DNA of 64,000 bases, taken from contig JAYWIR010000032.1 in NCBI GenBank assembly GCA_036172245.1, forward strand, positions 124,001 to 188,000, read 5' to 3'. This DNA comes from Raillietiella orientalis (taxonomy: Eukaryota). Of this stretch, positions 30,294 to 58,715 are shown one piece after another (positions within the stretch are counted from its first letter, which is position 1; each line of letters starts with the position of its first letter). The notes under the pieces are model-generated. The model searched no databases and was not told the DNA's origin. It saw only the letters and a list, made by a program, of their open reading frames with translations. The position numbers and the translations under genes were made by a program.

Positions 30294-30299
30294 TCCGCA

Positions 30300-31418: not shown

Positions 31419-34400
31419 AAGACGGACATGTTTTTCCTTGACTACCGAGTGATTTGAAAGGAAGACGCTTTTTCAGTGGTTTATTAGTGTGGAACATCGT
31501 TGACATGCGATGGCAACCTTGCCTGAGTTCACAACGATAGAGGTAGGTGTAGGAGAGACTTGCCCACCACCACAGCCTACAGAATCAGGGGCGTCCGCCC
31601 GGAAATCGCCCTCAATACCCGAGTCGTGGAGCTGGAGCCCCATAATGGCCGCGCCTAGAGCGAAAACCATGGCCGAACAAATGGCCTACCGGGCAGCTGG
31701 TTACAAGTCCAGCTTAGTGTACCAGGTAGGAAACCTATTTGATGGGCGAACTACACCCCACTTCACAAAGGCGCTGCAGGACTCCAATGTTTCCGAGAAG
31801 CTTCTCGACGGCCTCTCCGTTCTCAGCGGGGGTCAGCGCGTGGAGGTGATGTGTAAGGACAACACCTTGGCACAGCGCATGATCACAACGTCCCGGAACG
31901 TTGCAGGCTGCAAGATCTAGCAAGTCACAATGGACCGCTCCATAGTGGTCCATCTGACTGGTATCACTAGCCGCATGACTCGCTCTCCGGTTAGTGAAGA
32001 ACTAAAGAAGCACGGAGAAGTGCACGCGCTGTGGCCTAAACCGACGATATTCAATGGCTATGACAGCATATTCAAGAGCCAGGCCGCAGCGCGTATTATG
32101 GTAAACGAGAGTGGTGCGCTGCTTCCACAGACTGGAAGTATGCCAAGAACCGGGAGACCTCTGGTGAGTGGGAGAACCCCGCTTTTGTTGAGACTGCAAT
32201 ACAGTAAGGCACCTTCAAAAGAGGGGCCCAAATATTGTGTGTCACCTATGCGATGGAAAGGGCCACTTGCGACGAGTAGGCCTAATGCGCCTCACCCCGG
32301 TGCCACCTGCTGCCAAAAAAGCGCAGGTGAAAAGAAGAAAGAAGGTCGCAAGACCGAAAGTTGAAAGTGTCCAGCGGAAGCCGCCAGCACCTCAACCTCC
32401 GGAGAAAAAGTCGGAGGAACAACACTTCAAAGTAGTCGAGGGGGAGGAGGGCTGGCAGCTTGCAAAGGCCCGCAAAGAGCGGAAGGTTCCTAATGAAGTA
32501 CCAGAGAAAGCCGAGAAAAAAAGAAATGCGAAGTCGGAAAATTCGGACCGCGATCGAAAACTCTCCGCGAGTGCACGGTGACACTGGAATGCATCGACGT
32601 TCCCGAGGCTGCCACCCGAGGCGACGAGCCTCCCCTCGCCGTTTCCGCCGCGCCCGAGGCTCACGACTGCTAACCCTGTGTTTGCACAGAGAGTGAGCCG
32701 AGGGACGCGCGAGCCGAAAGCGAGGGCGCCGTATTCAAGCAGGCGGCGGAGACCGCGATCACGCTGACTGAACCTGAGAACCCCTCGCGAAATGCCGTAC
32801 GAAAGCCGGCTCCAGCAAAGAAAGCCTCCACAGGTGAGTTAGACCTGAAGGCCGGAAGTACATCCTCCTCCATGGAGGCACCCCCAAGGAAGTCGGGACG
32901 CAAGTCCCAGAAGCCCAGGAGGCGCCTCCCCTCCACCAGCGAGAAGGAGAAGACGAAGCCGTCGCCAGCGTGGGAAACCCAGAGGAGGAATTCCCAAGCT
33001 TAGAAGCCGTCGAGCAGGCTACCTCCATGGACGATAGTGAACAGGGGGGCGAAGTCCTCCCTGTAGTCGCCTAATCTGGAATGCCCGCCCCCATGGAGGA
33101 GGGCCAACAGTAGGCGCGTCCCCACCTGCAGGTGACCCGCAAGACGCGACGTTATCCATAAAGGAGGGGGACCAGGTGACTTCAGCACCTGACCCTCCTC
33201 CTCCACCAAGCGTCCCGCCCCAGCAAGTGGAGGACGCCACACTGCCACTTTCCCAGGAATAGCACCTGGGCTCGCCAATCTCCGTCGCATTCGCAGGAGA
33301 AAAACGATCAACGAGCTGTGTCCAGCAATGCATGCGTGCAACTTGTTCGCGGTTGAGAGCGGAACTGTCCGCAGCATCGACCAGGTCTTCCTCGACGCTG
33401 ACCTGTGTTCACGGGTCGGCAAACGGGTAAAGATTGCCTCCACGCAGTCGGACCATTCCCGGCTAATTTTCGAGAAGCGGTCTCGCGACAAGGGACCGCC
33501 ATCCAAGCAGTGGCGTCTGCAGGGGGACTGGACGCGACTCTCAGGTGCGAAGGAACACCTTCGCGAATTCCTGAAAGGCGTCACGCTCCAGAGCTTAAAG
33601 GACTGGGAGCTATTTAAGGACTCGGTCCGGGAGTTTTGCAAGCGGTTCCCCCTGGACCGCCTGACCCCGGATTTGGCGAGGGTCCTCGCTACCTTCGGCC
33701 CAATTTACGGGCCCGTCGGTATGAGAGATCCCCTAATGTCCGTCGCCTGGCTAAGTACCGTGCTGGGATCGAAAGCCAAGCCAGGCAATCCGGGCTGGCC
33801 AGACTGCTGGACGCCCAGGGCATGGAATGATTGTCCCCGGCGTCGGTAGAGCATCTCATGAGGAGTTATTATTCCTCCGTTTACGCTAGAACGCCCCCGG
33901 ACCAAGATGCCTCTCGGCGCTTGCTACCATATAGCGACCCGGTAATAGGGGAGGAGGAGTCGTTCAGCCTTGACGAGCCTTTAATTACCGCCGAAATTCT
34001 CGCCGATATCAAAAGGCTCAAGAGGTTTAAGGCGCCAGGGGAGGACGGCTTGCCCGCAATGTTCTTTCAGTGCATCGCGGAAGAGCTGGCACCCCTGGTG
34101 CTCGTGTTGACAGGGCTGATCCGAGACGAAGGCGATGTTCCCGCCTCGTTTCGGTCAGCCAGAGTGAGGCTCCTTCCGAAAGAAGAAGACCTTAGAAATT
34201 TGAACAACTGGCCACCGATCACGATTGTGAATACGGACGCCAAGTGACTTGCCGGGCAATGTGCTTCGCGTCTGGGAAAGGTGGCAGAATCCAAAATTAA
34301 GCCGAAGCAGATATCTGCTCTCGCAGGACGAAGTATGGAAGCCAACCTCTTCTACGCGAGAACATGGATGCACGCGCAGAGGTATCAGAAGGAAGGGAAA

Positions 34401-34507
34401 AGAAAAATCGGCAACCTAACTTTGGAACCGACAGCAGGGCAGGTAAGGAACTCCCGGGCAAGGAAGGTAGCCGTAGCGCTTGCAGTCGATCTCCATAAGG
34501 CGTTCGA
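31419..34507 (+). mobile_element. LINE subfamily 'Y': 5' end, ORF1, EN (deleted at ~33295) and RT up to DLHKAF
   Basis: 5' motif agacggacatgtttttcc; AAGYKSSLVYQVGNLFDG; SDH; KAPGEDG; stops at VDLHKAFD. Confidence 0.9.
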
Positions 34508-36164
34508 TATTCATGCGGATTTCGCAGGGGCGTTTCCTATGAAGTAAACATTTACAAAGACGTGAAGTGGCTGGACCATTGCTCCAGCCACGAACGAAGA
34601 AACACAGAGCCTGCCGCGTCACCGGTTCACAGACCGGGACGGTCCGAAAGCAGCGGGAAGGGGGAGAAGCAAAAAACAAAACAAAAAAGAAACGAAAAGT
34701 TGAGAGGGGACGAGAAGGGATCACTGTAGCTGGTGGGGCCGTTGCATCCTTTGCAGGATGCCGGCAGGCTACTTCTGTATTCCTGGATCCAGGTGGGGCC
34801 ATCTGGACGCAATCCTCAGGAACTGGGAGGCTAGCTCAATGGCAACCTGGTCGTGTGGTTCTCCCGTAGCCTTGCTTTAGGCGGCGACGATCCCGCGAAG
34901 GCAGCATAGGGCTGCTACCGGGGCCGCTAACCGAAGAGCGTCGGCAAAAAAGAAGGATTTAAGAACGTCCCTCGGGTTGTCACAGGGGATTCCGATGGCC
35001 GCAGCGAAGCGAAACCCAAGGGGCCAAAGAGCAACACAATCTAGTAGAAGGTGGGAGAGGGAATCCCGTTCCTTTCACCTGACGCAATTGGGGTCCATTG
35101 CTCCTCAGGTCCAGTGGTGTCGGTGGGCGTTGCAGGGGAGTCCCCAGTGCAGCAACAGAAATGCCGACTCCTGCCATTTTAAGGGGAGGGTGAAGGTGTT
35201 CATTAGTACCGAAGGCCACTTCAAACTTTCAATGGGAACATGGAGCAGCGCGCCCCAGCGTAGAAGTCCAAGGAGAGGCGTACTCGGGGACGCAGCGTCT
35301 GTTAACTGGCCCGTCTTTCACTCTCCTATCTTATTCTCCTTCCCGGAGATTGTAACTGTAACCTCCAACATCGCCGCAACATCTCCGTCCAGATCTTCCA
35401 TCAGAAAAAACAGAGCAGCAGCGTAAGGAGTTATTCCTGCCCACGCCCTCTTCTTTGGATCCTCCAGGATGTTGCAGAGCGGCAAACTTCTGAAAAACCC
35501 AAACAGGAACCCTTGTTCCTGCTGGGAGCGTTGCATGCCGAACTGTCCTCACGTGCGAACGGTTTCCTGCAACCAGGCACTACCGTTCGCGAAGAGACAG
35601 GTGATCCATCCTTGATTTTTCCTTGTCAGCGCAGCCACCCCCGTAGCTCGAGTCGGCATCGGTTGACGCGGCGACGGAGGACAAGAAACGACGTCAGTAT
35701 CGTCTTGCCGGTGGCTTGCTGGAGAAGACGTGCAGAAACGCACCAACAGTTGCAGCACAACTCTGGAACAAGTGCCGACATTCGGAATTGGAGCTAAAGC
35801 ATTAGCCGCTGCAGCGACAGGAGGCCCAGACCACCGTCCCGACGATGAGCTCGCAAGTTCTTTAAGCGGACTCGGGCCCTCCCGTTGCCCCGAAGGGCGA
35901 TACGGAGGAGGTCCTTCGTCCGCTTTTTAATCCTCTCTGTGGGGGGCAAACTCTAAGCAAAAAGCGGAGCAGAGGAGCCGCGAACATGTTCCAAACCCCT
36001 GCCCGTTCAGGCGAGAAAAACCTGCCGCCTCGGAACGGGCGGATCGCCGTCTCTCCTTTTTAGAAGAACGCTTCCGCAGGGGAGTAGTCCCCCAACGGCA
36101 CATCACAATTCTTGAAGTACCTCACCCTGAGGATCCCCAAACGGACCCAGCCCTGCTGCCCTGC

Positions 36165-37274
36165 CTACGACGCACCAACTGGCCTCACGGACGACTTCGC
36201 CCTGTGCACCGTAATTCCGATTTTCCGATGCAGCAGGTCGAAGAACTCCTGGAGCGCTGCAGCCGCGGTGGATATAGGGAGCAGCAGCAGAAGGTCGTCC
36301 GCGTGCGCTGAAACGACAGGCGTTCCGGAGCCTCCGTGCGGCAGGTGCGCCACAGTTTCCCTGCACGCTCCTAGTACGATCTCAAAAAAGGCACTAAAGA
36401 GCAAGGGGCGCAGGCTGTCTCCGTGCCGGATCCCACGTCGCACCCGCACGCCGTGAACAGTATGCCCGCTGAAAGTAACATTGATTAGCGCATCGCGCCA
36501 GCTAGAGCGCAGATAGGCCAATAATGAGGCCGGGAAGCGCAAGCGTTCCAAAAGCTCCAGCAGGAGATTCTGGTCGACGCTGTCGAATGCTTTACGCAAG
36601 TCGACAGCGACCGCAAGTGCTCCCTCCCCCATCCGACCATCCGTCGCATGACTGACGGACTCACCGGAATTCCCGGTGCGCATCAAGCCCCTTTCGTGTT
36701 GGAGCTCTAGCCAGGTGGAAGCGTGGAACATGTTCGCCTCCATGCTTCGCCCCGGAACAGCATACGTCTGTTCCGGGCTGATGAAGGCGTTTGCAACCCG
36801 TCCCAAACGCTCAACCCAAACCTTAGCTATCAACATGACATCCGCATTCACTATTGTGATGGGACGCCAGTTGTTCATGCTCCTCAGATCTCCTCCCTTA
36901 GGGAGAAGCCGCACCTTTGCCGAACGAAACGAGGCGGAAACATCACCTGTCTCGCGTATCAGCAAGGTGAGTTGATGTACCAGGGGGGATAGCTCAGCCG
37001 CGAAAGTTTGATAAAACTCCGCGGACAGGCCGTCCTCCCCTGGAGCCTTTCGCCTCTTGAGCTTTCCGATGGCCGAGATGATCTCGCCCATCGTGAAACA
37101 CTCGTCGAGGGACTTTTTCTCCTGTTCCCTCATCGCAGGAGCGCCCACCGGAAGCAGGATTCGTGAGAAATCCCGCTCGGGAGGCGTTCTTGCGTACAGG
37201 GAGGAGTAACAACGCCGCAGCAGACCGCGGATCTGAGCGGGTGCCGAATGCTCCTGGCCCTGATCGTCCAGCAA
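36165..37274 (-). pseudogene. ORF2 reverse transcriptase domain
   Basis: KAPGEDG, LLPKGGD...NWRPITIVNAD, DLRKAFDSV, GIRHGDSL and HADD. Confidence 0.93.
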
Positions 37275-37355
37275 GCTGGCCGATCCTGACTGCCAGGCTT
37301 GCTTCTCGGCTCCCGCTTTGTATTCCGCCAGCCTGCGGATGTCGGGGGTCCTGGG

Positions 37356-38288
37356 TTAACGGCGAGCCTGCAGATAGGCTCGTTCGTTACGTACCCCGTC
37401 CCCAAATCCCGCAGGTAGGCGGTGCAGAGGGAACTGGTCGCAGAACTCATGGACCGACCGTTTAAAGCGGTCCCAATCCTGAAGTGTCTGCATCCTAAAG
37501 CTCCGTATAAACGTGCGGAGATGTTCCGTCGCGTCCGGGAGCTTCAGCCAGTCCCCTGGCAAACGCCACGCTGACGAGGGGGGGCCCCTGTCGCGCAGAT
37601 GGATTTCAATCACGATTGGTCGATGGTCCGACAACTTGCACGGCATCTTGCATCGCCTGCCCACACGAGTGCACAGGTGCTCGTCAAGGAACACGTGATC
37701 GATGTTGTCCTCCATCCCTGGTACACTGGCCAACAAATTACAAGTGTGCACCGCCGCGCACACCTCGTTGACCAGGTCACGCTCGTGATTCGGCCCATCC
37801 GGATTCAGACGAATGTTAAAATCGCCTGCAACCAGATGGGCATTACGCACGCCTGCCTCGGTCAACCAGTCGCGATGGAGGGCAAGGAAAAATTCTTTCC
37901 AGGCCCTCCTGTTCGTCAGGTCCGCTCCGCTCGGGGCGTAAACGTTCGTAACGATCAGGTCGATCGAGTCGGACCAGCTGAGAGTCAGCTGGCCGACACC
38001 ACCGTGATCGTCGAACCGAACTCCACAGGCGGCGGCCTCGATGGCGGGCCGAAGCAGGTAGGCGACACCACAGCTTCTCGATGTTCCACCCCGATACCAC
38101 AGCCGCCCTCCGTAGATGCGTTCGATCTCCTGCGCTTGTTCTGCAGAGATCACATGGATCTCCTGCAGCAGCACAAGGTCGAACGATCCTAGAATGGCGG
38201 CCATGTCTCGTCTCCTGCCGGCGTCTGTCATGCCGTTCACGTTCCAAACGGCGATGCGCAGACGACGTCGGGAGGAGATTCCCGGCAT
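37356..38288 (-). pseudogene. ORF2 N-terminal AP-like endonuclease domain (open frame, stop after the linker)
   Basis: WNVNG, LLQEIH, GVAYLL, TNVYAP, AGDFN, IDHVF and SDH: the complete set of L1-type APE motifs. Confidence 0.93.
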
Positions 38289-38710
38289 TACTGCAGGAAA
38301 GATGACGGTGTGTGGGAACCGGCCTCTTCCGAGGCGGGTGAGATGACCATTAGGGTTTCAGCCTCCTCAGGCACCTTGGGTACCTTTCCGGCTTCAACCC
38401 CCTCCATCTCCTCCGTGTCTGTGCGTGGTGGTCTCTCGGGTGACGATTCCCGGGATTCTCCTACGCTCATGGCACCCTCGCAGTCGGAAGTGATCTCCAC
38501 GCCTTCGACCTGGAGAGGGGCTTTCCGTGGCTTGCTGGACTTCCTTCCAGCCTTCCGGCGGGGTGCCGCGGAGATGGAAACTTGGTTTCCGGCCTGCGCT
38601 TCAGGGTCGGAAGTTACCGACTCCTCGGTGGAGGCCGTACGGCTAACTGCCTTTTCGCCAGCCTTGTAGGGGTCTGGCTGCAACGTGGCAGCCAGCTCCT
38701 CCGCCGCACG

Positions 38711-39952
38711 GAGCCCCTGCAGCAAAGGATGGATCTGGAGGCTGCTACTGGCAATCTAGACTCTACTCCAGATGCCCGGTCTGCCTCTAATTCTTGTGTC
38801 TCGCCACCGGCGAGAAGCTTCGCCGCCGTCGTCAAGGCGGCGGCAGCCAACGGTGCATCGCCCGACGAAGCGGAGCTGCTTGCATATGCAGCCCATGGCT
38901 ACAAGCCTGCGCTCTGCTATCTGGTGAGTGCTGCTATCTCCGACGGGGTCGGAGAAAATCGTCAGAAGCATGGTTAGGCCGTCTTCAGAAAGTGGACTTG
39001 GCGATCCGTCCGTTCCTGGACGGCAAGTTCCACTTGCCGGAACGGGCCGCAGTATGGAACGCTTTTACGGCTTTCATCCTTAGCTCCCTACTTTTTGTTT
39101 GCCCCGTCCCCAAAGAAATACAATTGAGGACCAATGACCTCCTGCGCATCGCCGTTTAAGGCAAGGGAAGGCCCCGAGTCCCTTTGATGGACTTGTGCGC
39201 TCCGCGTCTTGATGGTGGTCTCGGCCTATTGACGCTGGAGCGCATGGAAATTCAACTGCGATGGCGAATCTTGGCCATCGCAGCTAAGCTGTGGAGCACC
39301 CCCTGGTGTGCTACCGCCCGCCTACTCGTCAGACGTGTATTCGAAAAGGGAGGACTGGCATCTTTTGTTCTATGTCGTGGAAGGAAGACAAGAATTTGCG
39401 GCCTTCTCCTCGAACGAGTAGCCACCCTGGCGAGGGAGAATGCTTGGATGATCTGGAGCTTCTTCAGCTCCAGCGCATGGCTGGCTGAAACAGTTGGCAC
39501 GTGGGCTGTAGTGAATAAGTGGAGCCACGTGACATGGATTAGCCTGCGACGCGGCCGATACTCCCGCTGCACTCTACGCGAGATCGTGGAGTGTCCAGCA
39601 AAAAGTACGTGGGCAGAGGCGACCTGCCTGGCGACGGTGCTACCTTTCCTACGTAGGGTAATCGTCAGCAGCGGGACGCCGAGGTGGCAAGTGTCTTGCC
39701 GTATCGCAGGCAGCCAAAAACTGTTGAGCGGTTGGACATTAGGACAGCTAGCTTACGCAACATTTCATAGCGTCCTTCCGAAAGGACAGAAAAAATGGAA
39801 CGAGCTCCTCGGCATCACGACTGATGACCTGAAGTGGCCCCCAGTAATAACTAAAAACAGGATCCTTCCCCTAAAATAGCAGGATTCGGCGCTGATGCTT
39901 TTGCACTAAGAACTGGCCTGGAATTGACGCCGTCATCACTGGACACGGGAAA
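38711..39952 (+). mobile_element. Strongly deleted LINE: ORF1 start fused at ~38970 to post-RT ORF2
   Basis: EAELLAYAAHGYKPAL is followed directly by AWLGRLQKVDLAIRPFLDGKF...RILPLK. Confidence 0.82.
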
Positions 39953-42877
39953 GTTTCCACCCGGTCACGCCAGGGCGTTTCTTAAAAAAACACTTTACAT
40001 TTGCGGCACTAGGCCCCGCTACGGTTAATATTTCGTGGGACCTGCTGAGAAGCCGGTTCTGAGGCCAGGTTGTCCTTCTCGGCAGCGGAGGGGAAAGAAG
40101 GTAAAACAAAAAGAAAAATAAATGAAATAACAAAAAGAAACTATTTGGGGATCCGGGAAGGGATCACAACCTGCTAGAGGAGAAGACCATTCTTTCCAGG
40201 ATGCCCTCGAGGTCCCTTGTCATAGCTCCCAGATGGGACCAGCCGATCGCGATTCGCAGGTAGCGACCCGCGTGTACGATGCGCTCCCTGTCGCTGCTTT
40301 CTCTGTTGGCTGCGTTCCAGGCGGCCACAATCCCTCGGAGGCAGCAGAGCGCTCCCAGGGTAGAGGCTGGTGGCAGGGCGTTTTGCACGAAGAGGAGTCA
40401 CAAGTTCTCTGGGATTACTGCCGACCGACATAGGGAGGGTCGTAGCATAACGTTCCCACAAGGGCCGGAGGGCAGCGCGATCCACTAACAGATGGGGGAG
40501 GGATTCCTTCTCCCCGCACACTGCACAGTTCTGTCCCACGTTCCACAACGTCAAATGATGGCGGCGCGCGTTGCAGGGAATACCCTAGTGCAACAACAAC
40601 ACCGCCGTTTCCTGCCACTTCAGAAGGAGGGTGGATGCGTCTCTAAGTAACGGAGGCCACTCTAGGTCATCCACCGGGATGCCAAGCAGCTCGCCTTATC
40701 CGTATTTCATGGTGGTGAACGCTTGGGTTTGCGGCGTCTGCTACTTCCCTCATTGTCCACCCGCTTAGATCCTTTTCCTTGCCCGCTATCCGGTAGGAGA
40801 CTTGCCATCTCGACTTTCGGCTGTTTTTAGGCGCCCTTCGTAGGAAGGGCAGCGCCGTGGCCAGTGGGGTCGTCTCCGCCCAAGTGCTTCTGGCGAGACA
40901 CACGATCATATTCTGCAGCGTTCAGCGGGTGTAGATGCCGGTGCGGAGGCGGTTGCAAAATTCTCCACTGATGTGTTTCAATTTGCCCAAGTTCTAACTG
41001 TTTCTTCAAGCCATGAGGTGGATTTCGCGGGGCTTCAGACCATCCACCCGTTGTCCTTCGCCAGGGTGGCCATGCGTCCCAGGAGAAGTCCGCATCTTCT
41101 TATTTTCCGGCCAAGGCACAGAAGAAAGGACGCGAGTCCTTCAATCCTGGACACACGTCTGACGAGAAGGTGGACTGGAACGCACCAAGGGGTGTTCCAC
41201 ATTTTCGCTGCGATGGCTAGAGTGCGCCACCGCACCTGTGTTTCCATTCGCTCCATCGTCAGGACGCTAAGATCTCCGTCCCGACGTGGAGCGCACAAAT
41301 CCTTCAAAGGCACACAAGGGCTCCCGCCGCTTCACAGGGCGATGCGTTGGAGGTCCTTTGTTCTTTTTTTCAGTTAACGGGGTACGAAGCAAACAAAAAG
41401 CAGAGGGCGAAGAAGGGGGGCCGCGAACGCGTTCCACACCGCGGCGCGTTCCGGCGAGGGAAGCTTGCCTTCCAGGAACGGGCCGATCGCTGACTCCACT
41501 TTTTGTAGACGACCTGACCAGGCTTCTGACAGGCTTAAGTCCCCCAACGGAACGCATAGGTACTTCAAGTACCTCTCTGAGGGTATCCCCAAGCGTATCC
41601 AGTCAGGCCGTCCGACCCACGTCGCATCAACCGCTACCACCGATGACTCCGCCTTATCTACACGTAGTCCAGTCCCGGGGCTCACCAGATCGAAGAAATC
41701 CTCGACTGCGGCTGCCAGGCGGACATAGGCAAAAGGAGCAGAAGATCATCGGCGAAAGCCGCTACGGCCGGCGTACCTCTACACGAGCTTGACAGGGCAT
41801 CCAATGTCATTCTGTATGCTCTCAGCACCACTTTTAAATAGGTGCTAAAGAGCAGGGGACTCAGGCTGTCGCCCTACCGGATGCCGCGCCTCACTGGCAC
41901 GCAAAACAAGTGCTGTGCTCTGAAAAACAAGTTAATGATCGCTTTGCGCTAGCAGGCGCGCAGGTAGACCGTTAAGGTGTCCGCGAAGCCCATGCGATTC
42001 AGGAGCTCCAGAAGGAGTTCCTGGTCCACGCCATCGAAAGCTTTGTGCAGATCGACTGCGATCGCTAGAGCCAACTTCTCTTCCCGGTCGTCCCTTACTT
42101 GCTGCGCTGGCGCTCCTACGTCAGGTTTGTTGACGTTACGTTATTTTTCCAAATTTTTCTCGCGTTGCACATGGAACCATGTGCTGGCGAACAACAGGTT
42201 CGCTTCCATGCTTCGCCCGGGAACAGCGTACGTCTGTTCCGGGCTGACGAAGCTGTCAGCTACCTGTCCCAGTCGCGCAGCCCACAGTCCGGCCAGCAGC
42301 TTGGCGTCTGTGTTCACTATCGTGATCGGACCCCAGTTGCTTAATTTCCTGAGGTCTCCTCCCTTAGGGAGGAGCCTCACATTGGCTGACCGAAACGAGG
42401 AAGGAACATCGCCTTCGTCTCGAATCAGCGATGTCAATTTGAGCTCCCAGGGGGTCAGCTCTGCGACGAACCACTGGAAGAATTCTGCCGGCAGGCCGTC
42501 CTCCTTTGGCGCCTTACGCCTTTTGAGCCTTTTAATCAGGGTGATGATTTCCTCAGTCGTAAAAGGCTCGTCGAGGCTTTCTTTCTCCTCCTCATCTATG
42601 GCCGGGGCTCCATCTGGAAGCAGGAGCTGCGGAGCGTTCCACTCCGCAGGTGCCCTTGCGTATAGAGAGAAGTAAAATCCGCGCACGAAGCGACGTATCG
42701 AAGCCGGCTCCGAGTGTTCCTGGTCCAAATCGTCCAGCACGCTGGGCGGTCCGGTTTGCCATGCTTGACGCTCGGCCACGGCTTTGTATTCCGCCAAGCG
42801 ACGAACGTCACGGGTCCTTGCGAAACGACGGGCGTGCAAATACGCCCTTTCGTTGCGGGCTTCTTCTCCAAATCCCC
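39953..42877 (-). mobile_element. LINE 'X' (RT to 3' end); outermost host of the nest, continuing at 58619-58715
   Basis: KAPKEDG, NWGPITIVNTDAK, DLHKAFD and FADD; 3' terminus rc AAGAAACGCCCTGGCGTGACCGGGTGGAAAC; breaks at RGFG. Confidence 0.9.
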
Positions 42878-44179
42878 TCTGTGGAGAGAGGACGTGCTTT
42901 TCCTGCGCTCCGCCTGCGTGGCAAGGCGAGTGATTTTTTCTTGAGTGGTTTGTGCGTGCACATCGTCGGTGTCCGATGGCAGCGTTGCCAGAGGACAGCG
43001 CGATCGATGTAGGCGTGGAAGAGGCTTGTTCGTCCCTAAGCCCACTGGATAAGGGGCATCCGCCCCGGAATCGTCCCCGGCGACACCGAGGTCATGGAGC
43101 GCCATGGTGGCCGCGCTTAGCTTGGAAGCCATGGCCGAGATGGAAGCCTACAACAAAGCGGCGTATAAACCCTCGCTAGTCTACAAGGTAGGCAACCTTT
43201 TCGATGGGCGAACTGCACGCGCCTTTACGAAGGCGCTGCAGAACGCCAATATCTTCGAAAAAGATCTTCACGGCCTCTGCGTCCTCAGCGGCGGGCAGCG
43301 GGTCGAGGTGGTATGCAAAGATATCACCTTGGCCCGACGCCTGATCACCGACCCGCTGATCGTTGATGGTCGGAAGATCTTGCCGGTGACGATGGACCGC
43401 TCGGTGGTGGTCCGTCTCATTGGGATCTCCAGTCGCATGACTAGGTCAGCGGTTCGTGAACAGTTGCAAAAGCACGTAGAAGTGCACGCGTTGTGGCCGA
43501 AGTCCACGATTTGCCAAGGATACAATAGCCTTTTCGGAGGTTAAGCTGCGGTGCAAAAAAGGATGGTGCGCTTCCCCACGAGCTGAAGGTCTATCAAGAA
43601 GCGGTGGACCTCCAGAACGTAGGGAGACCCCAATTTTGTGGCTACTGCAATGCAGTAGAGCATCTACGAAAAAGGTGCCCGAACATTGTGTGCCACCTAT
43701 GCGGGGAAAAGGGTCACATTCGGCGCGTGTGATCCAAGCGCCCCACCCCGGTGCCCCCTGCCGCCAAAAAGGCACAGGGAAAACGTGGAAAGCTGGTAGA
43801 AAGACCAGCTCGCGAAAATGGCCATTCCCAACTGCCAGCCTCCCTTCCTCCCGTACAGACGTCGGAGGAAAGAGCTCCCGTGAACGCGGAAATGGAGGAG
43901 AGTTGGCAGCTGGTTCAGGCCAGGGAAGAAAAAAAAAGAAAGTGATGCCAGAAGAAAAGTCGGAGAAGAAAACTGCCAACAACAAGAAAAAAGCTGCGCC
44001 GCTTTCAAGAAAAAAACAACTCCGCGAATGCTCGGTGGCACTAAAACGCTTAGCCGTTCCTGCCGAGGCCGCCCGCGGAAATGTTCAGCAAACAGCTGAT
44101 ACGGACGCGATGAATACTCGCGTGGACGAGCCCATTCTACGTTTAGAGGGTGAGACGCGAGACTCGCGCGCCGACAGCC

Positions 44180-44295
44180 AGGACGCCGCGCTCGATAAAG
44201 TCGCGGAGGAGCCCGCGGCAACGGTCGCCGCTGGCGAAGACGCGGCCTTCGAGAAAGCGGCGGAGGAGCTCGCAGCAACGCTCGCCGAGCGCGAA
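44180..44295 (+). repeat. In-frame 57-bp tandem duplication in the ORF1 tail
   Basis: DAALDKVAEEPAATVAAGE-DAAFEKAAEELAATLAERE; single-copy in the related ORF1 at ~22140-22200. Confidence 0.7.
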
Positions 44296-47248
44296 ACCCC
44301 GTCGCGCAAGGGCGTACGCAGGTCGGCTCCGAAGAAGGCCCCCGCAGGTGAGTGCGACCAGGGGGCCGGAAGCGGATCCTCATCCTCGGAAGCACCCCCA
44401 GGAAGTCGGGACGCAAGTCCCAGAAACCCAGAAGGCGCCTCCCCTCCACCAGCGAGGAGGAGAAGGCGGAAGGAAGCGGCAGCGTGGGAATCCCGGAGGG
44501 GGAACACCCACGTTCGCAAGTTGTCGAGTCGGCCACCCCCATGGAGGAGGGTGAGCAGGGGGCTGAAGTCCTCCGTGCAGTCGCGGAATTAGAGCAGCCG
44601 GAACCCATGGAGGAGGGCGAACAGGTAGGCGCGACTCCACCTGCGGGTGATCCGGCCGACGCGCCGGCAATGATGGAGGAGGAGGAACAGGTGCCTTCAG
44701 AACCTGTCCCTCCTCCCCCGCCACCTAGCTTCCCGCCCCAGCAGGTGGCGGACGCCGCATCGCCGTTTTCCCAGGACTAACACCTGGGCTCGCCAGTCGC
44801 CTTCGGATTCGCGCGGCCTGTTGGAACGTCAACGGGCTGCGCGACGACGGCAACAGGCGAGATACGGCCGACACCCTGCGTGAGCTCGACCTGGCACTGC
44901 TGCAGGAGATCCACGTGATCACCGCGGCAGACGCCCAGGAGATCGAGACGATCGCGGGGGGTCGGTTGTATTGGCAATGCGGCCTTCGAAACACCTGCGG
45001 GGTCGCTTTCTTCGTGAAGCCGGCAATCGACGCTGCCGTAAAGGGCGTGCGGTTTGATGACGACGGTCGGATCGGTCAGCTGATTCTTAGCTGGTCCGAG
45101 TCGATTGACCTAATCGTCACAAACGTGTATGGCCCCAGCAGCAAACAGTGGTACCGCGACCGCACCAGGCTGTTGGAAACCCTGATGCGCGACTGGCTGG
45201 CGGATACCAATGTGCGAAAGGCTCACCTGATAGCAAAAGATTCCAATCGAGTGCGGACGTGTTCTTCTTCGCTCTCGTCTCCGTGCTTTCATCCGCTTCA
45301 TCTTGTCGTCGTACATTTTGACGACGATGTCGACCCAACCCGAAGCTACTGAAGTTGGAGGAACAGCATCCGGATCTGCAATCGCGGAACCGACGGCCGC
45401 CTCCACTTCGTCTTTCTCGCCAATAGAGAGGAGGTTTGCTGACGTTGCTGCCACAGAAGTCGTCAAAGGGAAACCACTCGACGAGTCGGAGTTGCGGACA
45501 TACGTAGCCCAAGGGTATGAACCTGCTCTCTGATATAAGGTGAGTGGTTTTCTTTCTGCGCGCGACGGGAATCAGTTCAACGATGAACTGACCCGTGTTG
45601 GCGTGCGGGAGGAAAACCTCCTCGCCATTATGCCCGTAAAGGATATGGGCTATTCCAAGGTGCGTTGCAAAGACGCTGCACTTGTGCAACGCTTGCTGCG
45701 CACCCCGTTGTCGATCCGTGGCCAGAAGGTCTTCCCGGCCGCCATGGACGACTCATTTGAGGCGGAGATTTTCGACATCGAGTCGGAAATCTCGGATATT
45801 GATATTCGGAACGCGTTGGCGAAATTCGCCACGGTTTATGCGCAGTGGAGGGTGCGTAGCAACCTCAAGGACTTCCCGTCCATACACAGCGGAGTCGCTG
45901 GAGTCCGGCTTACAATGCCGGACCGCCGTCTGCTGTGAACCAAACATTACGTGAAAGACACGGTCGTTCACCTGTGGTTCGTGGGCAAAGTAAGAACGTG
46001 CGAGTAATGCGGGAAGGAGGGCCATTGTTTGGATAAATGCCCCTCTGTAAAATGCCGTTATTGCAAACTATCCGGGCACCAATTGAAAAATTGCCCGGAT
46101 CTTTTGCGAAAAAAGGCAGCCGCGGAGCTCCATCTTAAAAAACAAAGCGCGGATCAAAAGAAAAAATCTTCGAAAAACCTGGAGACCCCACGGCAGAAAT
46201 TCCGAAAAAACGCGAGGCGCAATGTCGCCCCAAAGCAGCAGGAAACCTCGCACGCGAAGCCCTGCGCGCCCCCTCTCGCGGCAGTGGAGCCGCAAAAGAA
46301 AGGGTGCGGGGAATCCGGGACAATGGTATGTCCCCCTGGGCGCAATAGCTGTCCTTCCCAAGCACTCCCAACTCTTTCGGAGTTCGAGCAACCGGCGGAG
46401 ACGTCAATGGACAACGGCGGTAAGGACACTTGCAGTACCGTCAGATCCATTCCTTCACCTCCTGCAGTGGCTGAGAAGCCCAAATCAGGTAAGAAGGGTT
46501 GTGCCGTGTCGACCTCGAAAGTCGGCAAAACAAATTCCGCGTCGCGATCCAAGACCGCGAAAGCGGAGAAAAATCTCACGCCGTCGCAGTCGAAGAGCAA
46601 GCTCTCGACTGGCGCGGATGCCATGCCAACGAAGGGATTAAAAGCCCTCCCGAAGGCAGCGTCCATGACGAGCGTGTCGGAGCCATCGAAACTGCTCCCG
46701 TTTAAAGACGCGGAGGGCTTCAAAGATGGCAATGGAACACAATCTCCATTTACGGCGCCACGCGAAGTGAGGAACCGTAATGAAGTAAAGAAGACTTCCG
46801 CAAAGGTCCCTCGTGCAACTGCGCGTGAGCACGCTGAAAACGTGCGCGCCGGGAAAGCAGCCGTCACCAAAAGCGATGCTCTGGAGACGGAAAAAGACAA
46901 CAGGACAGCTGTCAATCCAGCAGAACCTGTCACTACTTCGCGGAAGGCCGAAACTCGATCCACCATGCGCCGGTCGGACACCGAAATGGATGCCGTTCCG
47001 ATCACCGAGACGAGGACAACTCGATCGAAAGCGTGTGCGCGCCGATTGAAAGTAGGCAGCCAGGCAACGCTCGCCGCGAAGCCACGCGAAGTCTCCACGA
47101 ATCCCGACGGGGTTAAGCCTGGCGTGGAGGCATTACATGCATGCAGCACGACGGAGGACGGTGGCGACCGTCCCCTCCAGCCAGTCGTGCTGCTCGCCGT
47201 CTGCTCGCCGGATAAAGCGAGCAAAAAGCCGCCACCTTCCCAGCAGTA

Positions 47249-48719
47249 ATGCATGGAATCGCGCCTTCTCGTAGTCTGTCCGTAACGTGTTGGAACGCGA
47301 GCGGACTACAGAACGACGAGAAGAGGCGATTAGTAGCCAACGCCCTGCGCCCCTTTGACCTGGCGCTCCTGCAGGAGATTCACGTAATCTCCGACGAGCA
47401 GGCAGCCGAAATCGAGGAGCGGGCAGGCGGAACGCTACATTGGCGGTGCGACGGCGCACATACGTGCGGCGTAGCGTTCCTCGTAAGAGAAAAAATGGCG
47501 GAAGCGGTGCGTAGTGTTCGTTTCGATGACGACGGACGGATAGGCCAGCTTGTCATCAAGAGGTCCGAGCCCATCGATCTCGTCGTTACGAACGTCAACG
47601 TGCCGAGTGGCTCTTGCTACCTCGAAGGAAGGTTAGCTTTCTTTGGTGAGGTGCAAAGCCACTGGCGAAACTACTTTGGCTTCCAAGTGGCGCACCTCGT
47701 CGCTGGGGACTTCAACGTCCGCCTGCTCTACGACGATTTGAGCCGCCCGAGGGAGCGCGCGCTGCCCATCGAGATGTGCGCGTCCGTGCACGCCGCCAAC
47801 TTGATGGTCAGCGAACGTGAAATGGAAAGATCGCTCGATCACGTTTTCCTCCATGAAAATGCATTCGCGTGTGGGTAGGAGAGGAAGATTGTTGACTAGG
47901 CTTTCTGACCACCACAGGTTGGAGTTTGAGATCCTTCCGCCAGGCAGGGGGCCTCCGTTGCAAAACTGGAGGATGCAGGCGGATTGGCTCAGCCAACCGG
48001 AGGCTGCGGAGCATCTACGTGGATACCTCCGAGGCTTTGCCATTCAAGAACTTGCGGACTGGGACGATCTCAAAAGATCTGTCCGCGAGTTCTGTTGCCA
48101 ATTCCCCTTGCACCGGCTTCCACGCGGTTTCGGAGAGGGCGTGGCCAACAGTAGAGACTTTCTGCAGGCCCGCACGTTTTCTAGACGCGCGGATTTCGAA
48201 CGTCCCGCGGAGTACAAGGCGAGGGCGGAGCGCCATCTCTGGCAGTCCGGAGCAGCATGCTTGTTGGACGACAAGGGCCAGGAAAGTTCGGCCCCAGCCG
48301 AAGTACGTCGCATTGTGAGACGCTACTTCTCCTCGCTGTACGCGGAATCCCCGACGGAGGATATTCTTTCTGAGATACTCCTGTCTCAGTATGCTCGTGT
48401 TGTCGGCGAGGAGAAACGCGAACGTCTTAACGAGCCCTTCACGGCGGATGAACTTTCGTCCGTTATCGCTGTGCTGAAGAGACGAAAGGCGCCAGACGAG
48501 GATGGGCTCCCTGCAGAGTTTTATCAGTGCTTTCAAGTGGAGCTCATTCCCTTGATGATGAGACTCGCGACGCTGATGAATGAATCCGGGAATTTCCCGG
48601 ATTCCTTCCGCTCAGCGAAGGTGCGTCTCCTGCCGAAAGCCGGAGACTTGCGTCAACTTAACAACTGGCGTCCGATCACCTTAGTGAACTCGAACGTCAA
48701 GTTGTTTTCCAAGCTGTAA
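47249..48719 (+). pseudogene. ORF2 of Z: endonuclease and start of RT (frameshift at ~47860)
   Basis: CWNASG, LLQEIH, AGDFN, LDHVF, SDH, KAPDEDG and NWRPITLVNS. Confidence 0.9.
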
Positions 48720-50337
48720 GTCGCGCGGTTAGGAAGTATCGCGGAATCTGTGGTGAGCCCGGAACAAACCTACGCGGTTCCGGGACGATCCATGGAGGCG
48801 AACATCCTTTTCGCGCGTACATGGATGCAGCTGCAGGAAGTTGTGGCGCAGCAAAGCCAGACTGCTGCGAAAGTCACTGCCGCAGGCAAAAAGAACAGGA
48901 GCCGACGGCAGGAGGGAGCGCCAGGTGCCTTGGCGGTCGCGGTCGATCTCCACAAGGCGTTCGATTTTCACCCGGATTTCTCCGAGTCGTTTATTAAAAA
49001 AATAAACTTTGTAAGCAAATTATTAATGGCTGTGGCGATGCTCCAGCCAGAAGCTGGGAACCACGGCGCCTGCCAATTTACCGGTTTCTAGACCGGTACG
49101 GTCCACCAAGGAAGAAGGGGAAAGCGGAAAAACAAAAAAAACTAAACAAAACAAAAAAAAAAAAAACAAAGGATGGGAGGGCACGGGAAGGGATCACTGT
49201 TGCTGCTGGAGCCGCATCATCCCTCTCAGGATGATGGCAAGCTCTTGTTTGTTCTGAACATCCAGGTGGGGCCATCGCGACACCCTCCTCAGGAATTCGG
49301 AGGCGCACTGGATGGCTTTCTGATCGCTAGGTCCTCCCGTCGCCGTGCTCCAGGCGGCGACGATCCCACGAAGGCAGCACAAGGCTGCTATCGAGGACGC
49401 TGGCCGCAGGGCGTCGGCAACGAAGAAGGCTTTTAGTGCGTCCCTGGGGTTGCTGCAAGGGATACCGATTGCCGCGGCAAAGCGGAACCAAAGGGGCCGA
49501 AGGGCAACACAATCCACTAGGAGGTGGGGGAGGGACTCCCGTTCCCCGCACCTTACACAATTGGGATCCACCGCTCCCCAGGTCCAGTGGTGTCGACGGG
49601 CGTTGCAGGGGAGTACCCAGTGCTGCAACAGGAATGCCGACTCTTGCCATTTTAGGGGAGGATGGAAGTGTTCATAAGAATCGGGGGCCACTTCAGATGT
49701 TCAATCGCAACATCCAGCAGCGCTCCCCAGCGCAGAAGTCCATTAGGAGGCGTACTCGGGGTCGCAGCATCAGTTAGCTGGCCCGTCTTCCACTCTCTCT
49801 GCTTCTTCTCCTTCCCGGAGATTTTTATTGTAACCTCCCACTTCGCCGCAGCATCGCTGTCCTGATGTTCCACTAGGGAGTCCAGCGCAGCAGCGAGGGG
49901 GGTTCTTCCTGACCACGCTCTCTTCTTGGGATCCTCCAGGATCTCACGGAGCGTGCCACTTCTGTAACACCCAAACAGGAACCTTCGTTCCTGATGGGAG
50001 GGTTGCATGCCGAACTGTCCCCACGTACGAACGGTTTCCTGAAACCAGGGACTACCGTTCGCGGGAAGACAGGTGATCCATCCTTGATTTTTCCTTGCCA
50101 GCGCAGCCACCCTCCGTAGCTGCAGTCCCCATCGGTTGACGCGGCGAAGAAGTGCAAGAAAACAAGTCAGTCCCGTCTTGCCAATGTCTTGCTGAAGTAG
50201 GAGACGTGCAGGGACGCACCAACAGGTGCACCACAACTCCGGCACAAGTGCCAAAATCCGGAACTGGAGATGCAGCTCCAGCCGCTGCAATGTCAGGAGG
50301 CCGAGACCACCGTCCCGACGCGGAGCGCTCAAGTCCT

Positions 50338-51228
50338 TCAAGCGGAGTCGGGCCCTCCCGCTGCCCCAAAGGGCGATACGGAGGAGTTCCTTCGTCCGCT
50401 TTTTGATCCTCTCTGTGGGGGGCAAACAAAAAGCAGGGAACGGAGGAGAGGAGCCGCGAACATGTTCCAAACCGCGGCCCGTTCAGGCAGAAAAAACCTG
50501 CCGCCTCGGAACGGGCCGATAGCCGTCTCTACTTTTTGAAGGCAGCCGGACCACGCTTCCGCAGAGCAGTAGTCCCCTAACGGCACATCAAGGTACTTGA
50601 AGTACCTCACCGTGGGGATCCCCAAACGGACCCAGTCCTGCTGCCCTGGCCACGACGCACCAACTGGCATCACGGACAACTTCGCCCTGTTCACCGTAAG
50701 CCCGGTTCCTCGATTCAGCAGGTCGAAGAACTTCTCGACCGCCGAAGCCGGGGTGGACATAGGGAGCAGTAGCAGGAGGTCGTCCGCATATGCTGAAACC
50801 GCAGGCGTTCCGGCGCATTCATGTGGCAGTTGCGGCAGAGTTTCCCTGTACGCTTTCAGTACCAACTCAAAGTTGATACTGAAAAGCAAGGGGCTCAGGC
50901 TGTCTCCTTGCCGGATCCCACGTCGCACCAACACGCCGTGAACAGTATGCCCGCTGAAAGTAACATTGATTAGCGCATCGCGCCAGCTAGAGCGCAGATA
51001 GGCCAATAATGAGGCCGGGAAGCCCAAGCGTTCCAAAAGCTCCAGCAGGAGATTCTCGTCGACGCTGTCGAATGGTTTACGCAAGTCGACAGCGACCGCA
51101 GGTGCTCCCTCCCCCATCCGACCATCCGTCGCATGACTGACGGACTCACCGGAATTCTCGGTGCGCATCAAGCCCCTTGCGTGTTGGAGCTCTAGCCAGG
51201 TGGAAGCGTGCAACAGGTTCGCCTCCAT
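50338..51228 (-). pseudogene. ORF2 RT fragment with an intact YADD
   Basis: DLRKPFDSV, GIRQGDSLSPLLF, SAYADDLL and FKYLDVPLG. Confidence 0.92.
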
Positions 51229-51250
51229 GCTTCGCCCAGGATTCCCGGCA

Positions 51251-52968
51251 TTACTGCAGGAAAGATGACGGTGTGGGGGAACCGGCCTCTTCCGAGGCGG
51301 GTGAGATGACCATTAGGGTTTCAGCCTCCTCAGGCACCTTGGGTACTTTTCCGGCTTCAACCCCCTCCATCTCCTCCGTGTCTGTGCGTGCTGGTCTCTC
51401 GGGTGACGATTCCCGGGATTCTCCCACGCTCATGGCACCCTCGCAGTCGGAAGTGATCTCCACGCCTTCGACCTGGAGAGGGGCTTTCCGGGATTTTCTG
51501 GAATTCCTTCCAGCCTTCCGGCGGGGTGCCGCGGAGTTGGAAACTTGGTTTCCGGACTGCGCTTCGGGGTCGGAAGTTTCCGACTCCACGGTGGAGGCCG
51601 TACGGCTAACTGCCTTTTCGCCAGCCTTGGAGGGGTCTGGCTGCAACGATGCAGCCAGCTCCTCCGCCGCACGCTCGAAGGCGGAGTCATCGATCACGGT
51701 CTCGATGACGGACGCTTCCGCCGGTTCGCTCCCCACGCTGTTGACATTTTCAACAGTGGGTTGCTCGTCGGTAGCAGCGATTTCTACCTTGCGGCGTTCG
51801 ACGGGGACGCGTTCCACGACGACGCTGCATTTTTTAAATTCTCGCTAACCTGCTGTTTTTTATTTTGGTAGGCGAGCTTTTTTTCGATTCGTCGTTCTTT
51901 CTTCAGCTTTTTTTTCTTTTTCGCTGTGACTTCTTGCCATTCCAACACCTGACCGCTTTTGTCAATCTTTTCGGCATTTGTTGCCGGGATGTCGGCTGAG
52001 GCCTGGACCACGGGAGTGGGTGGCACAGCTTGAGCGGCAGCCTTCGCCGCCAGTTTTTTCTGAAGCAGATGCGCGCGTTTTTTTAGGTTTCTTGCGGAAA
52101 CCACGCGCACAGCGGATTGTGGACACACTTCCTTCGTGTGGCCCATTGTCCCGCCTACCAGGCACTGTACGTTGGGGCACCTCCTTTTGAGGAGTCCCGA
52201 CGTGTTGCAGAAGCCACAGTATTTGGGCTTCCCCACGTACCAGAGGTCGACGCTTTCTCCGCCGACCACCAGTTTGTCGGGAAGGGTAAAGCCCTCCCGA
52301 ACGGTTACACGGGCAGCCGTGAGGCCGCACTGAACAGTGGTATAGTCCTCGAAAGGACTAGGCTTGTTCCATACTGCATGGACCGTGCCTTCTTTTCCCA
52401 ACGCGGCGCGTAACTGTTCTTTCCGCATACGCACGGTAACTCCTAAAAGGTTGACCACCATACTATGGTCCGCCGTAACGGGAAGGAGCCTGCGTGTCCC
52501 CATTACCACGGGGGTTTTAAGGAGACGTTGGGCCAGATCTGCATGTTTGCAGATCACCTCTACGTACTGCCCCCCGCTACGAATGGTCATAGCGCGGAGC
52601 TCCTCTTCTTTAACATCGAGAGCGCGCATCCCCTTCGAAAAGGCGCGCGCACTGTCAGCAGAATACAAATTTCCTACCTTGTAGAATAGTGATGGGTTAT
52701 ACCCCTCTTCCACATAGGCAGATAATTCCGCCGCGGCTGCAGGCGATGACGCCGACACGACGGCGCTCCACGCCCGCGCTGCAGCGGGGACCGGTTTTGT
52801 GGGGGCGGACGCCCCCACCTCCTTCGCCACTGAAGGCGACGTTACCGCTGCCCCCTGGCACTCCACCTTCTCTAGAGGCGACGTTGCCGCCGCCACCTGG
52901 CACTCCATTTCTTCAGGAGGCGACGGTGCCACCGCCCCCTGACACGTACTGGTGGTCGCGTCAGGCAT
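51251..52968 (-). pseudogene. ORF1 (gag-like nucleic-acid-binding protein) with one frameshift at ~51830
   Basis: Low-complexity N-terminus, AYVEEGYNPSLFYKVG domain, CGFCNTSGLLKRRC / CLVGGTMGHTKEVC degenerate knuckles, Lys-rich then acidic tail ending in TAATG. Confidence 0.88.
52810..52915 (-). repeat. In-frame ~36-bp tandem repeat in the ORF1 N-terminus
   Basis: EEMECQVAAATSP-LEKVECQGAAVTSP-SVAKEV. Confidence 0.65.
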
Positions 52969-55951: not shown

Positions 55952-56932
55952 TTGCTCCAGGATGGTGCCCCTGCAATAGGGGAAGAGGAGTCGGTAAGCC
56001 TCGACGAGCCTTTCACTACCGGCGAAATTCTCGCCGGTATCAAAAGGCTCAAGAGGCGTAAGGCGTCAGGGGAGGACGGCTTGCCCTCGGAGTTCTTTCA
56101 GCGCTTCGCGGAAGAGCTTGCCCCCTTGCTGCTCGTGTTGACAAGGCTGATCCGAGACGAAGGCGATGTTCCCGCCTCGTTTCGATCAGCCAGAGTGAGG
56201 CTCCTTCCGAAAGGGGGGGACCTCAGGAAATTGCACAACTGGCGTCCGATCACCATCGTGAACACGGACGCCAAGTTGCTAGCAGGGCTATATGCTTCGC
56301 GTTTGGGGCAGGTGGCAGAGTCCATAATTAGCCCGGAGCAGACCTATCCTGTTCCCGGGCGAAGTATGGACGCCAACCTCTTCTTCGCAAGAACGTGGAT
56401 GCACCTGCAAAGGAGAGAAAAGAAAGGGAAAGGGAAAATCGGCAACTCCACATTGAGTCCGCCAGCGGGGCTGAGAAGGGACCCCGGGGCGGGGAAGGGG
56501 GCCCTAGCGATCGCAGTCGATCTCCATAAGGCGTTCGACTGTGTAGACCAGGAGCTCCTCTTAGAGCTCCTGGGTCGTATGGGCTTCCCACTCTCCTTGA
56601 TATGCTACCTGCAACCTTGCTGGCTGAATGCGATGATTACCGTCTCTTTCAGCGGGCACAAGGTGTCTGGCGTGCCAATGCGGCTGGGTATCAGGCAGGG
56701 CGATAGCTTGAGTCCCCTGCTCATCAGCACCTACTTTGAGTTGATGCTGAGAGCCCACATGGTGACTTTGGCCCCCTTGCCGAGCTCGTGCCCCGGCACG
56801 CCCGCCGTAAGTGTTTATGCCGAAGATCTTCTGCTCCTGTTACCTATGTCCATCCCGGCGAAGGCGGTCGGAGATTTCTTCGACCTGCTCAACCGCGGGA
56901 CCGGACTGCAGGTGAACAGCGCGAAGTCGTAA
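55952..56932 (+). pseudogene. ORF2 RT domain of Y
   Basis: KASGEDG, NWRPITIVNTDAK, DLHKAFDCV, GIRQGDSLSP and YAED (mutated YADD). Confidence 0.92.
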
Positions 56933-58406: not shown

Positions 58407-58618
58407 TCCCTTCCCTGCCCTCCAACCTATTTGGTTCGTTTCCGTTTTTGTTTTTATTTTTGTTTTTCCCCATCCCCTTTCGCTGCCGGGGAGTGCCACG
58501 CCGGGCTGCGTCCCAGCGTCCCGGTAGGTCCCGTGTATAAGGCCATGAGCGGGCCTGGTACCGCGATTGTAGAGTTTGTTATGATTAATAAACGCCTCGG
58601 GCGTATCCGGGTGGCAAC

Positions 58619-58715
58619 TTTAAATCCCCGGGACAGGCGGTGCAAAGGGAAATCCTCGCAGAACTCGCGGACCGAGACCTTCATGAGGACCCAATCATCG
58701 AGATTGCGGAGCGTC
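58619..58715 (-). mobile_element. 97-bp sliver of host element X trapped between two insertions
   Basis: Translates as TLRNLDDWVLMKVSVREFCEDFPLHRLSRGF, the sequence expected immediately upstream of RGFGEEARNERAY at 42877. Confidence 0.88.

Follow-up and report, generated by a model that had tools for sequence, protein, structure and literature searches.

Architecture of the LINE nest

This analysis concerns a 64-kb stretch of the Raillietiella orientalis genome (GenBank assembly GCA_036172245.1, contig JAYWIR010000032.1, positions 124,001 to 188,000 of the forward strand), referred to below as the window; all results rest on this one window, and coordinates are window positions. From ~10.6 kb to the window end at 64 kb lies a nest of diverged long interspersed nuclear elements (LINEs) that encode an apurinic/apyrimidinic endonuclease (APE) and a reverse transcriptase (RT). 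One clade of these elements, designated W, is found in antisense orientation at the codons of RT motif A (..DLHKAF^D, the caret marking the junction) of other LINEs, and it is likely that W inserts there in a site-specific manner. Sister clades in the same nest recur at sites of their own.

The nest stands out by its base composition, with a G+C content of 51-61% from ~12 kb on, 48% at 10-12 kb and ~40% in the first 10 kb. Its long open reading frames (ORFs) match the Pfam domains Exo_endo_phos and RVT_1. Full-length copies consist of a conserved 5' terminus, an ORF1 that has no Pfam match, an ORF2 encoding APE followed by RT, and a 3' untranslated region (UTR) lacking poly(A). The 5' terminus, ..GCGGACGTGTTTTTCC, is common to seven elements (~10828, 20878, 31423, 42889, 45254 and 58719 on the plus strand; 53052 on the minus strand); therefore, an unusually large share of the nest copies is 5'-complete. 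In the decoded nesting order, X contains W1 and V, V contains Y, Y contains Z, and Z contains W2. The nest was decoded in part between 10 and 33 kb, with the junctions of fragments A, B, C, F and e13 left out.

When aligned, the 8 recognisable 3' ends in the window all lack a poly(A) tail (8/8), and all of them adjoin LINE ORF2 sequence, at four positions only. The 3' ends of the nest LINEs terminate in GGAAAC, GATAAA, GAAAAA or GAAWA. The hexamer AATAAA stands 24-30 nt before six of the eight (17948, 30265, 48984, 55256, 58587 and 61359), the other two having AAGAAA or GGAAAC.

Two W elements end at the same base of RT motif A

The only W 3' ends in the window belong to two elements, W1 and W2, and each abuts the motif A codons of its host (Table 1). 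At the first junction, host X reads GTCGATCTCCATAAGGCGTTCGA (34485-34507), followed by TATTCATGCGGATTTC; at the second, host Z reads GTCGATCTCCACAAGGCGTTCGA (48942-48964), followed by TTTTCACCCGGATTTC. Both hosts read ...GTCGATCTCCAyAAGGCGTTCGA up to W, after which comes the reverse complement of a LINE 3' end (...GCATGAATA in W1 and ...GGGTGAAAA in W2). An earlier, sequence-only reading of this DNA had reported two antisense W junctions at RT motif A, and both are present as described. It had further claimed that the nucleotide, the orientation and the inserting lineage are the same in two different hosts, which is borne out, the hosts being 55.7% and the W copies 83% identical. The nick after GA can stay as it was drawn, but the junction base carries a one-base ambiguity: GAT is found at both occupied sites, and GAC at both empty exact sites and in the right-hand repeat of W2. 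On this evidence, the last A of W, read as its complement, probably supplies the T at 34508 and 48965. As for the proposed inactivation of the host, it holds in the trivial sense that ORF2 is split; the hosts also carry stop codons.

Of the two elements, W1 has both an APE ORF and an RT ORF. Its minus-strand ORFs at 37356-38288 and 36165-37274 match Exo_endo_phos (1.2e-14) and RVT_1 (3e-16), respectively, and three-frame translation gives a continuous APE-then-RT reading, which is the APE-type LINE architecture. W1 is 5'-truncated at ~38712, its similarity to W2 stopping at 38710. Next to it stands a filler whose ORF1 piece is 74-77% identical by blastn to 24552-24624, 45479-45546 and 30538-30589. 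Beyond the filler, a Y-type RT fragment (fragment I), 75-76% identical to Yref and Yinv and interrupted by element V40 at 39952, starts ~520 nt downstream of motif A; host X probably resumes in this fragment, with ~520 nt missing in between. For W1, only the 3' junction was counted as evidence.

W2 is complete at its 5' side, where its start, ...ACGTCGGCTAGAGCGGACGTGT, matches that of element O. The host resumes at 53066 with AAAGCTTTCGA followed by CTGCGTAAACC, which gives an 11-nt direct repeat with 48954-48964. The same 11-mer, AAGGCGTTCGA, forms the last 11 nt of host X (34497-34507). W2 has no counterpart of W1 36757-38276, i.e., the APE and the N-terminal part of RT; it was either mobilised in trans or lost this portion by a later deletion. 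In the right part of host Z (fragment L), the nearest copy is D (72.9% identical).

A third W-clade event

A further W-clade element, e10, is represented by its 5' part. In the ORF1 tree it is sister to W2 with support of 99/97, and its 3' end was not found in the window. The sequence next to its 5' end is an RT fragment in antisense to e10 that, in its own sense strand, begins AAAACGCTCGAC TTCATCAAACAAGAG...CTGGAGCTT, which corresponds to motif A onward. Positions 10816 down to 10806 represent the repeat-side copy of the target and are identical to AAGGCGTTCGA at 8 of 11 positions. The 5' junctions of e10 and W2 are built alike, with the element 5' end, 12-14 extra nt and then AAAxCxxTCGAC. 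Thus, the case for a W site comprises 2/2 3' junctions and one 5' junction, that of e10, and all W-clade elements with a visible junction (3/3) are located at motif A, in antisense, in three different hosts.

Table 1. Positions of the W-clade elements, their hosts and the motif A sites discussed in the text
Feature	Positions	Strand	Remarks
e10 host, RT fragment antisense to e10	10560..10816	-	starts at motif A
e10, 5' part of W-clade element	10829..11887	+	5' motif GGACGTGTTTTG at 10829-10840; ORF1 10957-11887
Host X (Y-clade LINE), complete 5' end to RT motif A	31422..34507	+	5' motif at 31422; 81% to Yref
Host X ORF1	31507-32596	+	
Host X APE and RT	33298-34508	+	
W1, W-clade LINE	34508..38712	-	APE ORF, RT ORF, frameshifted C-terminal part, 3' UTR
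W1 own motif A	36582..36602	-	GACTTGCGTAAAGCATTCGAC (DLRKAFD); uninterrupted
Filler at W1 5' side	38713..38958	+	G/Z-type ORF1 N-terminus piece at ~38858-38930
Fragment I, Y-type RT C-terminal part	38959..39952	+	tblastn to W1 coordinates 2902-3853
Host Z left part (fragment K)	45253..48964	+	complete 5' end, ORF1, APE, RT to motif A
W2 target-site duplication, left copy	48954..48964	+	AAGGCGTTCGA
W2, W-clade LINE	48965..53065	-	5'-complete; 402-aa ORF1 at 51784-52992
W2 own motif A	51067..51087	-	GACTTGCGTAAACCATTCGAC; uninterrupted
W2 target-site duplication, right copy	53066..53076	+	AAAGCTTTCGA; 9/11 vs left copy
Host Z right part (fragment L)	53066..55286	+	RT from motif A to 3' end ...GATTGATAAA
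Empty exact target site in Yref	56516..56539	+	motif-A sequence
Empty exact target site in Yinv	63439..63462	-	motif-A sequence

Independence of the insertions

Two identical junctions could also descend from one ancestral W insertion whose host was later copied along with it, by segmental duplication or composite trans-mobilisation, and a blastn alignment of the two W loci indeed extends 43 nt past the junction into the host. Outside the conserved motif, however, the hosts belong to different clades, and their identity in the ~770 nt leading up to the junction is 55.7%, near the forced-alignment level, whereas W1 and W2 agree at 82.9% of 2247 aligned nt. The host of W1 (H) is of Y type, with 81% identity to Yref and 78% to Yinv; that of W2 (K) shows 69.6% identity with D and 68.9% with G. 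In both cases, clade-specific host sequence reaches within ~20 nt of the junction. In a maximum-likelihood phylogeny built from the 3' halves, W1 groups with W2, Yref with Yinv and V40, and G with D and L, each clade with support of 100/100. Furthermore, the 5' sides of the two insertions differ wholly, W2 being complete and flanked by a repeat and W1 truncated and rearranged, and the host of e10 constitutes a third locus. Because host and insert are not equally diverged, a single insertion followed by duplication is excluded for practical purposes, and a common origin of the two loci is highly improbable. Transduction of a 3' tail and gene conversion were likewise considered as origins of the junctions and rejected on account of the host divergence, the unlike 5' sides and the lack of homology at the junction.

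Given how repetitive the region is, mis-joins in the assembly might be suspected. Such errors arise at shared identical sequence, whereas here motif A in sense orientation meets an antisense 3' UTR with which it has no homology. The same join would, moreover, have had to be made twice, between sequences that are 17% (W) and 44% (host) diverged, and W2, Y and Z are flanked by repeats and have complete 5' ends. The probability of an assembly artefact is therefore close to negligible, and separate insertions of W into different hosts are the preferred explanation.

Divergence between W1 and W2 is unevenly distributed. Just upstream of the APE start, 434 nt are 96.1% identical (W1 38277-38710 and W2 51240-51673), and in the 3' part (W1 34509-36756 and W2 48966-51241) the identity drops from 96% to ~70% toward the 3' end, with about equal numbers of transitions (196) and transversions (188). 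This pattern tentatively suggests a mosaic origin or gene conversion. Purifying selection was not detected in the W1-W2 comparison (ratio of nonsynonymous to synonymous substitution rates, 0.94 over 196 codons), which gives no sign that the two diverged as active lineages.

Sites of the sister clades

Elements of the Y clade recur at a different position, the linker between APE and RT, in antisense orientation and in 3 of 5 cases. Yref (3' end at 58618) and Yinv (3' end at 61339) are inserted after ..GGGGATTTRRR^ in hosts V and O. The site falls in the linker codons ..FPLHRLxxGF^GD and is spelled ..GGGGATTTGGG^; Y is flanked by an 11-nt repeat (GGGGATTTAAA / GGGGATTTGGA). A third Y-clade element, E, adjoins host D with its 5' end (20877) at the homologous linker position. 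These junctions were read in the stretches 58585-58650, 61300-61375, 42850-42910 and 20840-20900.

Members of the Z/G clade, conversely, lie in sense orientation within the codons for the GDFN motif of APE, in 2 of 3 cases with the third probable. The hosts of D and Z, both inserted at GA^TTTCAAy, are a W-type and a Y-type copy; the repeat measures ~8 nt and was read for Z. The third element, G, is flanked by TTCAATCCGCATT, which from its sequence is probably the same GDFN site. After ~30 nt, G is followed by the 5' region of another G-type copy, forming a head-to-tail pair. The stretches read for this clade were 45215-45275, 55250-55320, 17880-17965 and 30255-30345.

As all 8 visible 3' junctions lie within four ORF2 sites, motif A and the other positions could be structural or chromatin hot spots that receive any LINE irrespective of its clade. 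The sites are, however, divided by clade, with W at motif A (3/3), Y at the linker (3/5) and Z/G at GDFN (2/3 and one probable), and among the junctions of the window no clade was found at the site of another. Orientation at these sites is also fixed by clade, W and Y being antisense and Z/G sense. Hot spots open to all LINEs are thus a very unlikely explanation, and a preference belonging to each clade fits the distribution better.

Length of the recognised sequence

In the absence of any sequence preference, the chance of a second insertion at the same base and strand of an element of ~5.6-6 kb is ~1e-4. The number of nucleotides that W recognises was approached by counting words that end at the nick, over 53 kb and on both strands: TTCGA occurs 99 times, GTTCGA 21 times, GCGTTCGA 8 times and 10-mers and longer words 4 times, words of at least 10 nt being confined to the 4 motif-A sites with the exact target. 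The exact 11-mer has 4 occurrences in the window, and 9 with at most one mismatch vs 1.57 expected. Of the 10 motif-A sites in the window, TTCGA is kept in all and GTTCGA in 5.

These counts bear on a simpler proposal, namely a short nicking preference for a 5-7-mer such as GTTCGA, in which case recurrence at motif A would be coincidence combined with the abundance of this motif in the nest. Five of the 21 GTTCGA sites and five of the eight GCGTTCGA sites are at motif A, and the emptiness of two exact sites would agree with this proposal. Both 3' junctions would land at motif A with a chance of ~0.01 if a 5-mer is recognised and of ~0.06 if a 6-mer is recognised; with e10 included, these values become ~0.001 and ~0.01. 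Against a short word also speak the orientation, alike in 3/3 events, and the recurrence of sister clades at sites of their own. On balance we consider such a word unlikely. The data indicate that W recognises a sequence of roughly 7-8 nt or more.

Observations weighing against site specificity

Several findings speak against an interpretation in which W and its sister clades are site-specific. For W, there are three junctions only, all in one LINE nest, where W copies outside LINEs are not visible; two exact target sites are unoccupied; and with five of the eight GCGTTCGA sites in the nest being motif A, recognition of an 8-mer could suffice. The repeats are imperfect, at 9/11 for W2 and 8/11 for the target copy of e10, and the 5' side of W1 is rearranged, with ~520 nt of host missing, a foreign ORF1 fragment in place and no readable repeat. 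Element O, which is sister to the W clade, adjoins V with its 5' end at approximately position 1480 of V, which is not motif A.

The Y clade offers two further exceptions. V40, which groups with Yinv in this clade (84/92), sits in antisense at a C-terminal ..RHHWT site, and the 5' junction of X lies within a G-type ORF1, with X in sense orientation. With a 5-nt gap permitted, the V40 site, ..CACTGGACACGGGAAA^ (39915-39990), agrees with the linker target at 14 of 19 positions. Site preference is clade-specific and not absolute, at least in the Y clade.

Spelling of the motif A of W itself

The sequence-only reading had also held that W carries a recoded version of its own target, which might reduce self-targeting. 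The DLRK spelling of W does differ from the target: relative to the 11-nt sequence there are 2 differences in W1 and 3 in W2, with more in the flanks, and the W-type spelling class is AAAGCATTCGA. The motif A of a G-type copy, GATTTGCATAAAGCATTCGAC, has nearly the same spelling; therefore, the W spelling is ordinary clade variation and not special to W. Occupancy of exact motif-A sites is 2/4 and that of variant sites 0/6, a difference that is not significant (Fisher p ~0.13). The linker site of the Y clade in its own copies, CCGGATTTGGC, is also slightly different from its targets, which as a sign of self-immunity is suggestive and no more.

Other features of the window

Some premature stops are shared between copies. 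An in-frame TAA at 'EL(L/M)*RLG' is common to D and L (20058 and 53111), and in K, G and Yinv one and the same Trp codon is replaced by a stop ('KL*VxRLG'; 48717, 27948 and 63687). Either these are defective lineages that were mobilised in trans, or the same mutations recurred.

Two ideas were dropped. Rfam gave no match in the window at the gathering threshold, and neither a hammerhead ribozyme nor a Penelope-like element was considered further. A conserved 3' stem-loop was abandoned as well: for the terminal ~80 nt of the eight 3' ends, the predicted consensus fold has 0 pairs.

Outside the nest, the AT-richer flank contains a 390-nt inverted repeat (1-390 vs 2129-2518; 93% identical) that may represent the ends of a DNA transposon. 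Long ORFs are absent from positions 1-10500.

Proposed mechanism of insertion

The nest elements bear the signature of target-primed reverse transcription: their 3' ends are precise, their repeats measure 8-11 nt, 5' truncation occurs, and APE is combined with RT. A sequence-specific variety of this process, in which the host sense strand is nicked at GTTCGA^Y, is the probable route by which W reached its sites. In outline, W would be an L1-like LINE clade (APE and RT, no poly(A)) that targets the motif A codons of other LINEs in antisense orientation. The first nick would fall on the host sense strand between GTTCGA and the following base, leaving a primer strand ..GCGTTCGA-3' whose 3'-OH would prime complementary DNA synthesis starting at the exact W 3' end (...GAAWA). 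A cut in the opposite strand, 11 nt upstream, would then account for the repeat AAGGCGTTCGA.

The specificity most likely resides in the APE or ORF2 protein encoded by W. In R1-type elements, according to the portions of the source drawn on here, specificity lies in the element's own APE/ORF2 protein (PMC1919474). A W RNA transcribed from a copy already present at this site, if extended by a few bases past the W 3' end, would include UCGAACGCC.., a sequence complementary to the primer strand, and this might serve as a possible aid to precise priming.

On a broader scale, W would be one member of a guild whose sister clades, each with its own site in conserved ORF2 codons, build up the nest. 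Tentatively, the nest might be viewed as a LINE 'ecosystem', in which each sister clade has a private, precise and oriented site in the conserved ORF2 codons of the others and a respelled copy of that site in itself that confers self-immunity; we regard this wider picture as possible, with the odds rather against it.

Relation to known elements

The closest relatives of W were sought in several databases. The W APE has its best match among solved LINE structures in the human L1 endonuclease (1.6e-5), and no R1 or TRAS endonuclease was matched in the PDB at E<=0.01. The best long matches in the protein database are 24-29% identical, several being plant L1-like proteins with zf-RVT. A metagenome scan with the RT alignment returned 4 loci at 26-36% identity, which are too distant for a comparison of flanks, and the ESM Atlas returned generic RVT_1 clusters only. 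One sequence, P0025, an intact 619-aa RT on a 2870-nt JGI contig, shares 67% identity with W1 and likewise contains AVAVDLRKAFDCV. Because P0025 is intact, undegraded members of the W family exist elsewhere.

LINEs with a defined target have been described for rRNA and snRNA genes, for telomeres and microsatellites, and for one DNA transposon; for example, Tx1L inserts in the Tx1D transposon and R1 in 28S rDNA. In the portions of the survey by Kojima and Jurka drawn on here, the Tx1 and R1 clades are the APE-encoding target-specific LINE groups, and 'transposons' are among the known targets (PMC4640811). W resembles these elements in having APE and RT, in choosing one defined nucleotide of a multicopy sequence, and in its precise 3' ends and short target duplications. 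Unlike them, W appears to be directed to the catalytic-motif codons of fellow LINEs in place of RNA genes, microsatellites or DNA transposons. Here, in addition, several sister clades share one nest, each with its own site.

Nested clusters have a precedent in Zepp and ZeppL, L1-clade LINEs of green algae described, in the parts of the sources used here, as forming nested and putatively centromeric clusters (PMC8226300, PMC3446292). The corresponding part of Blanc et al. gives one Zepp cluster per chromosome and a G+C content of 61% for Zepp vs 53% for the genome (PMC3446292). As far as these descriptions go, the W nest and Zepp are alike in growing by insertion into existing copies and in forming GC-rich nested clusters within DNA of lower G+C content. 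Conversely, nucleotide-precise, clade- and orientation-specific sites do not feature in the Zepp descriptions compared, and many copies in the present nest are 5'-complete, whereas Zepp arrays are described as mostly 3' ends. Zepp also has a poly(A) tail, which the elements of the W nest lack.

A functional parallel is found among homing endonuclease genes, inteins and group I/II introns, which aim at the most conserved and catalytically important codons, so that the target persists in relatives; an occupied homing site is no longer a target. The comparison with the W nest is an analogy only, as its elements use target-primed reverse transcription instead of double-strand-break repair and have no splicing to rescue the host.

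In the literature consulted, no LINE aimed at the RT or APE motif codons of other LINEs was encountered, a weak absence, given that the primary Zepp papers (Higashiyama 1997; Yamamoto 2003) were not covered. From the sequence comparisons, the W nest appears to join two known themes, target-specific LINEs and nested LINE clusters, the new element being the use of the catalytic-motif codons of LINEs as a target.

Implications

If the proposed site specificity is correct, the W nest would link target-specific LINEs to self-nesting clusters and provide a sequence-level mechanism for the growth of LINE clusters, possibly including centromeric ones. It would also offer a series of related APE/ORF2 proteins with different long recognition sequences, useful both for understanding LINE integration and for re-targeting it. 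Competition and immunity between transposon lineages would become directly testable. In the wider reading, which parallels the logic of homing endonucleases, LINEs would use each other's catalytic motifs as safe havens and destroy them in doing so, in what would amount to an arms race among retrotransposons.

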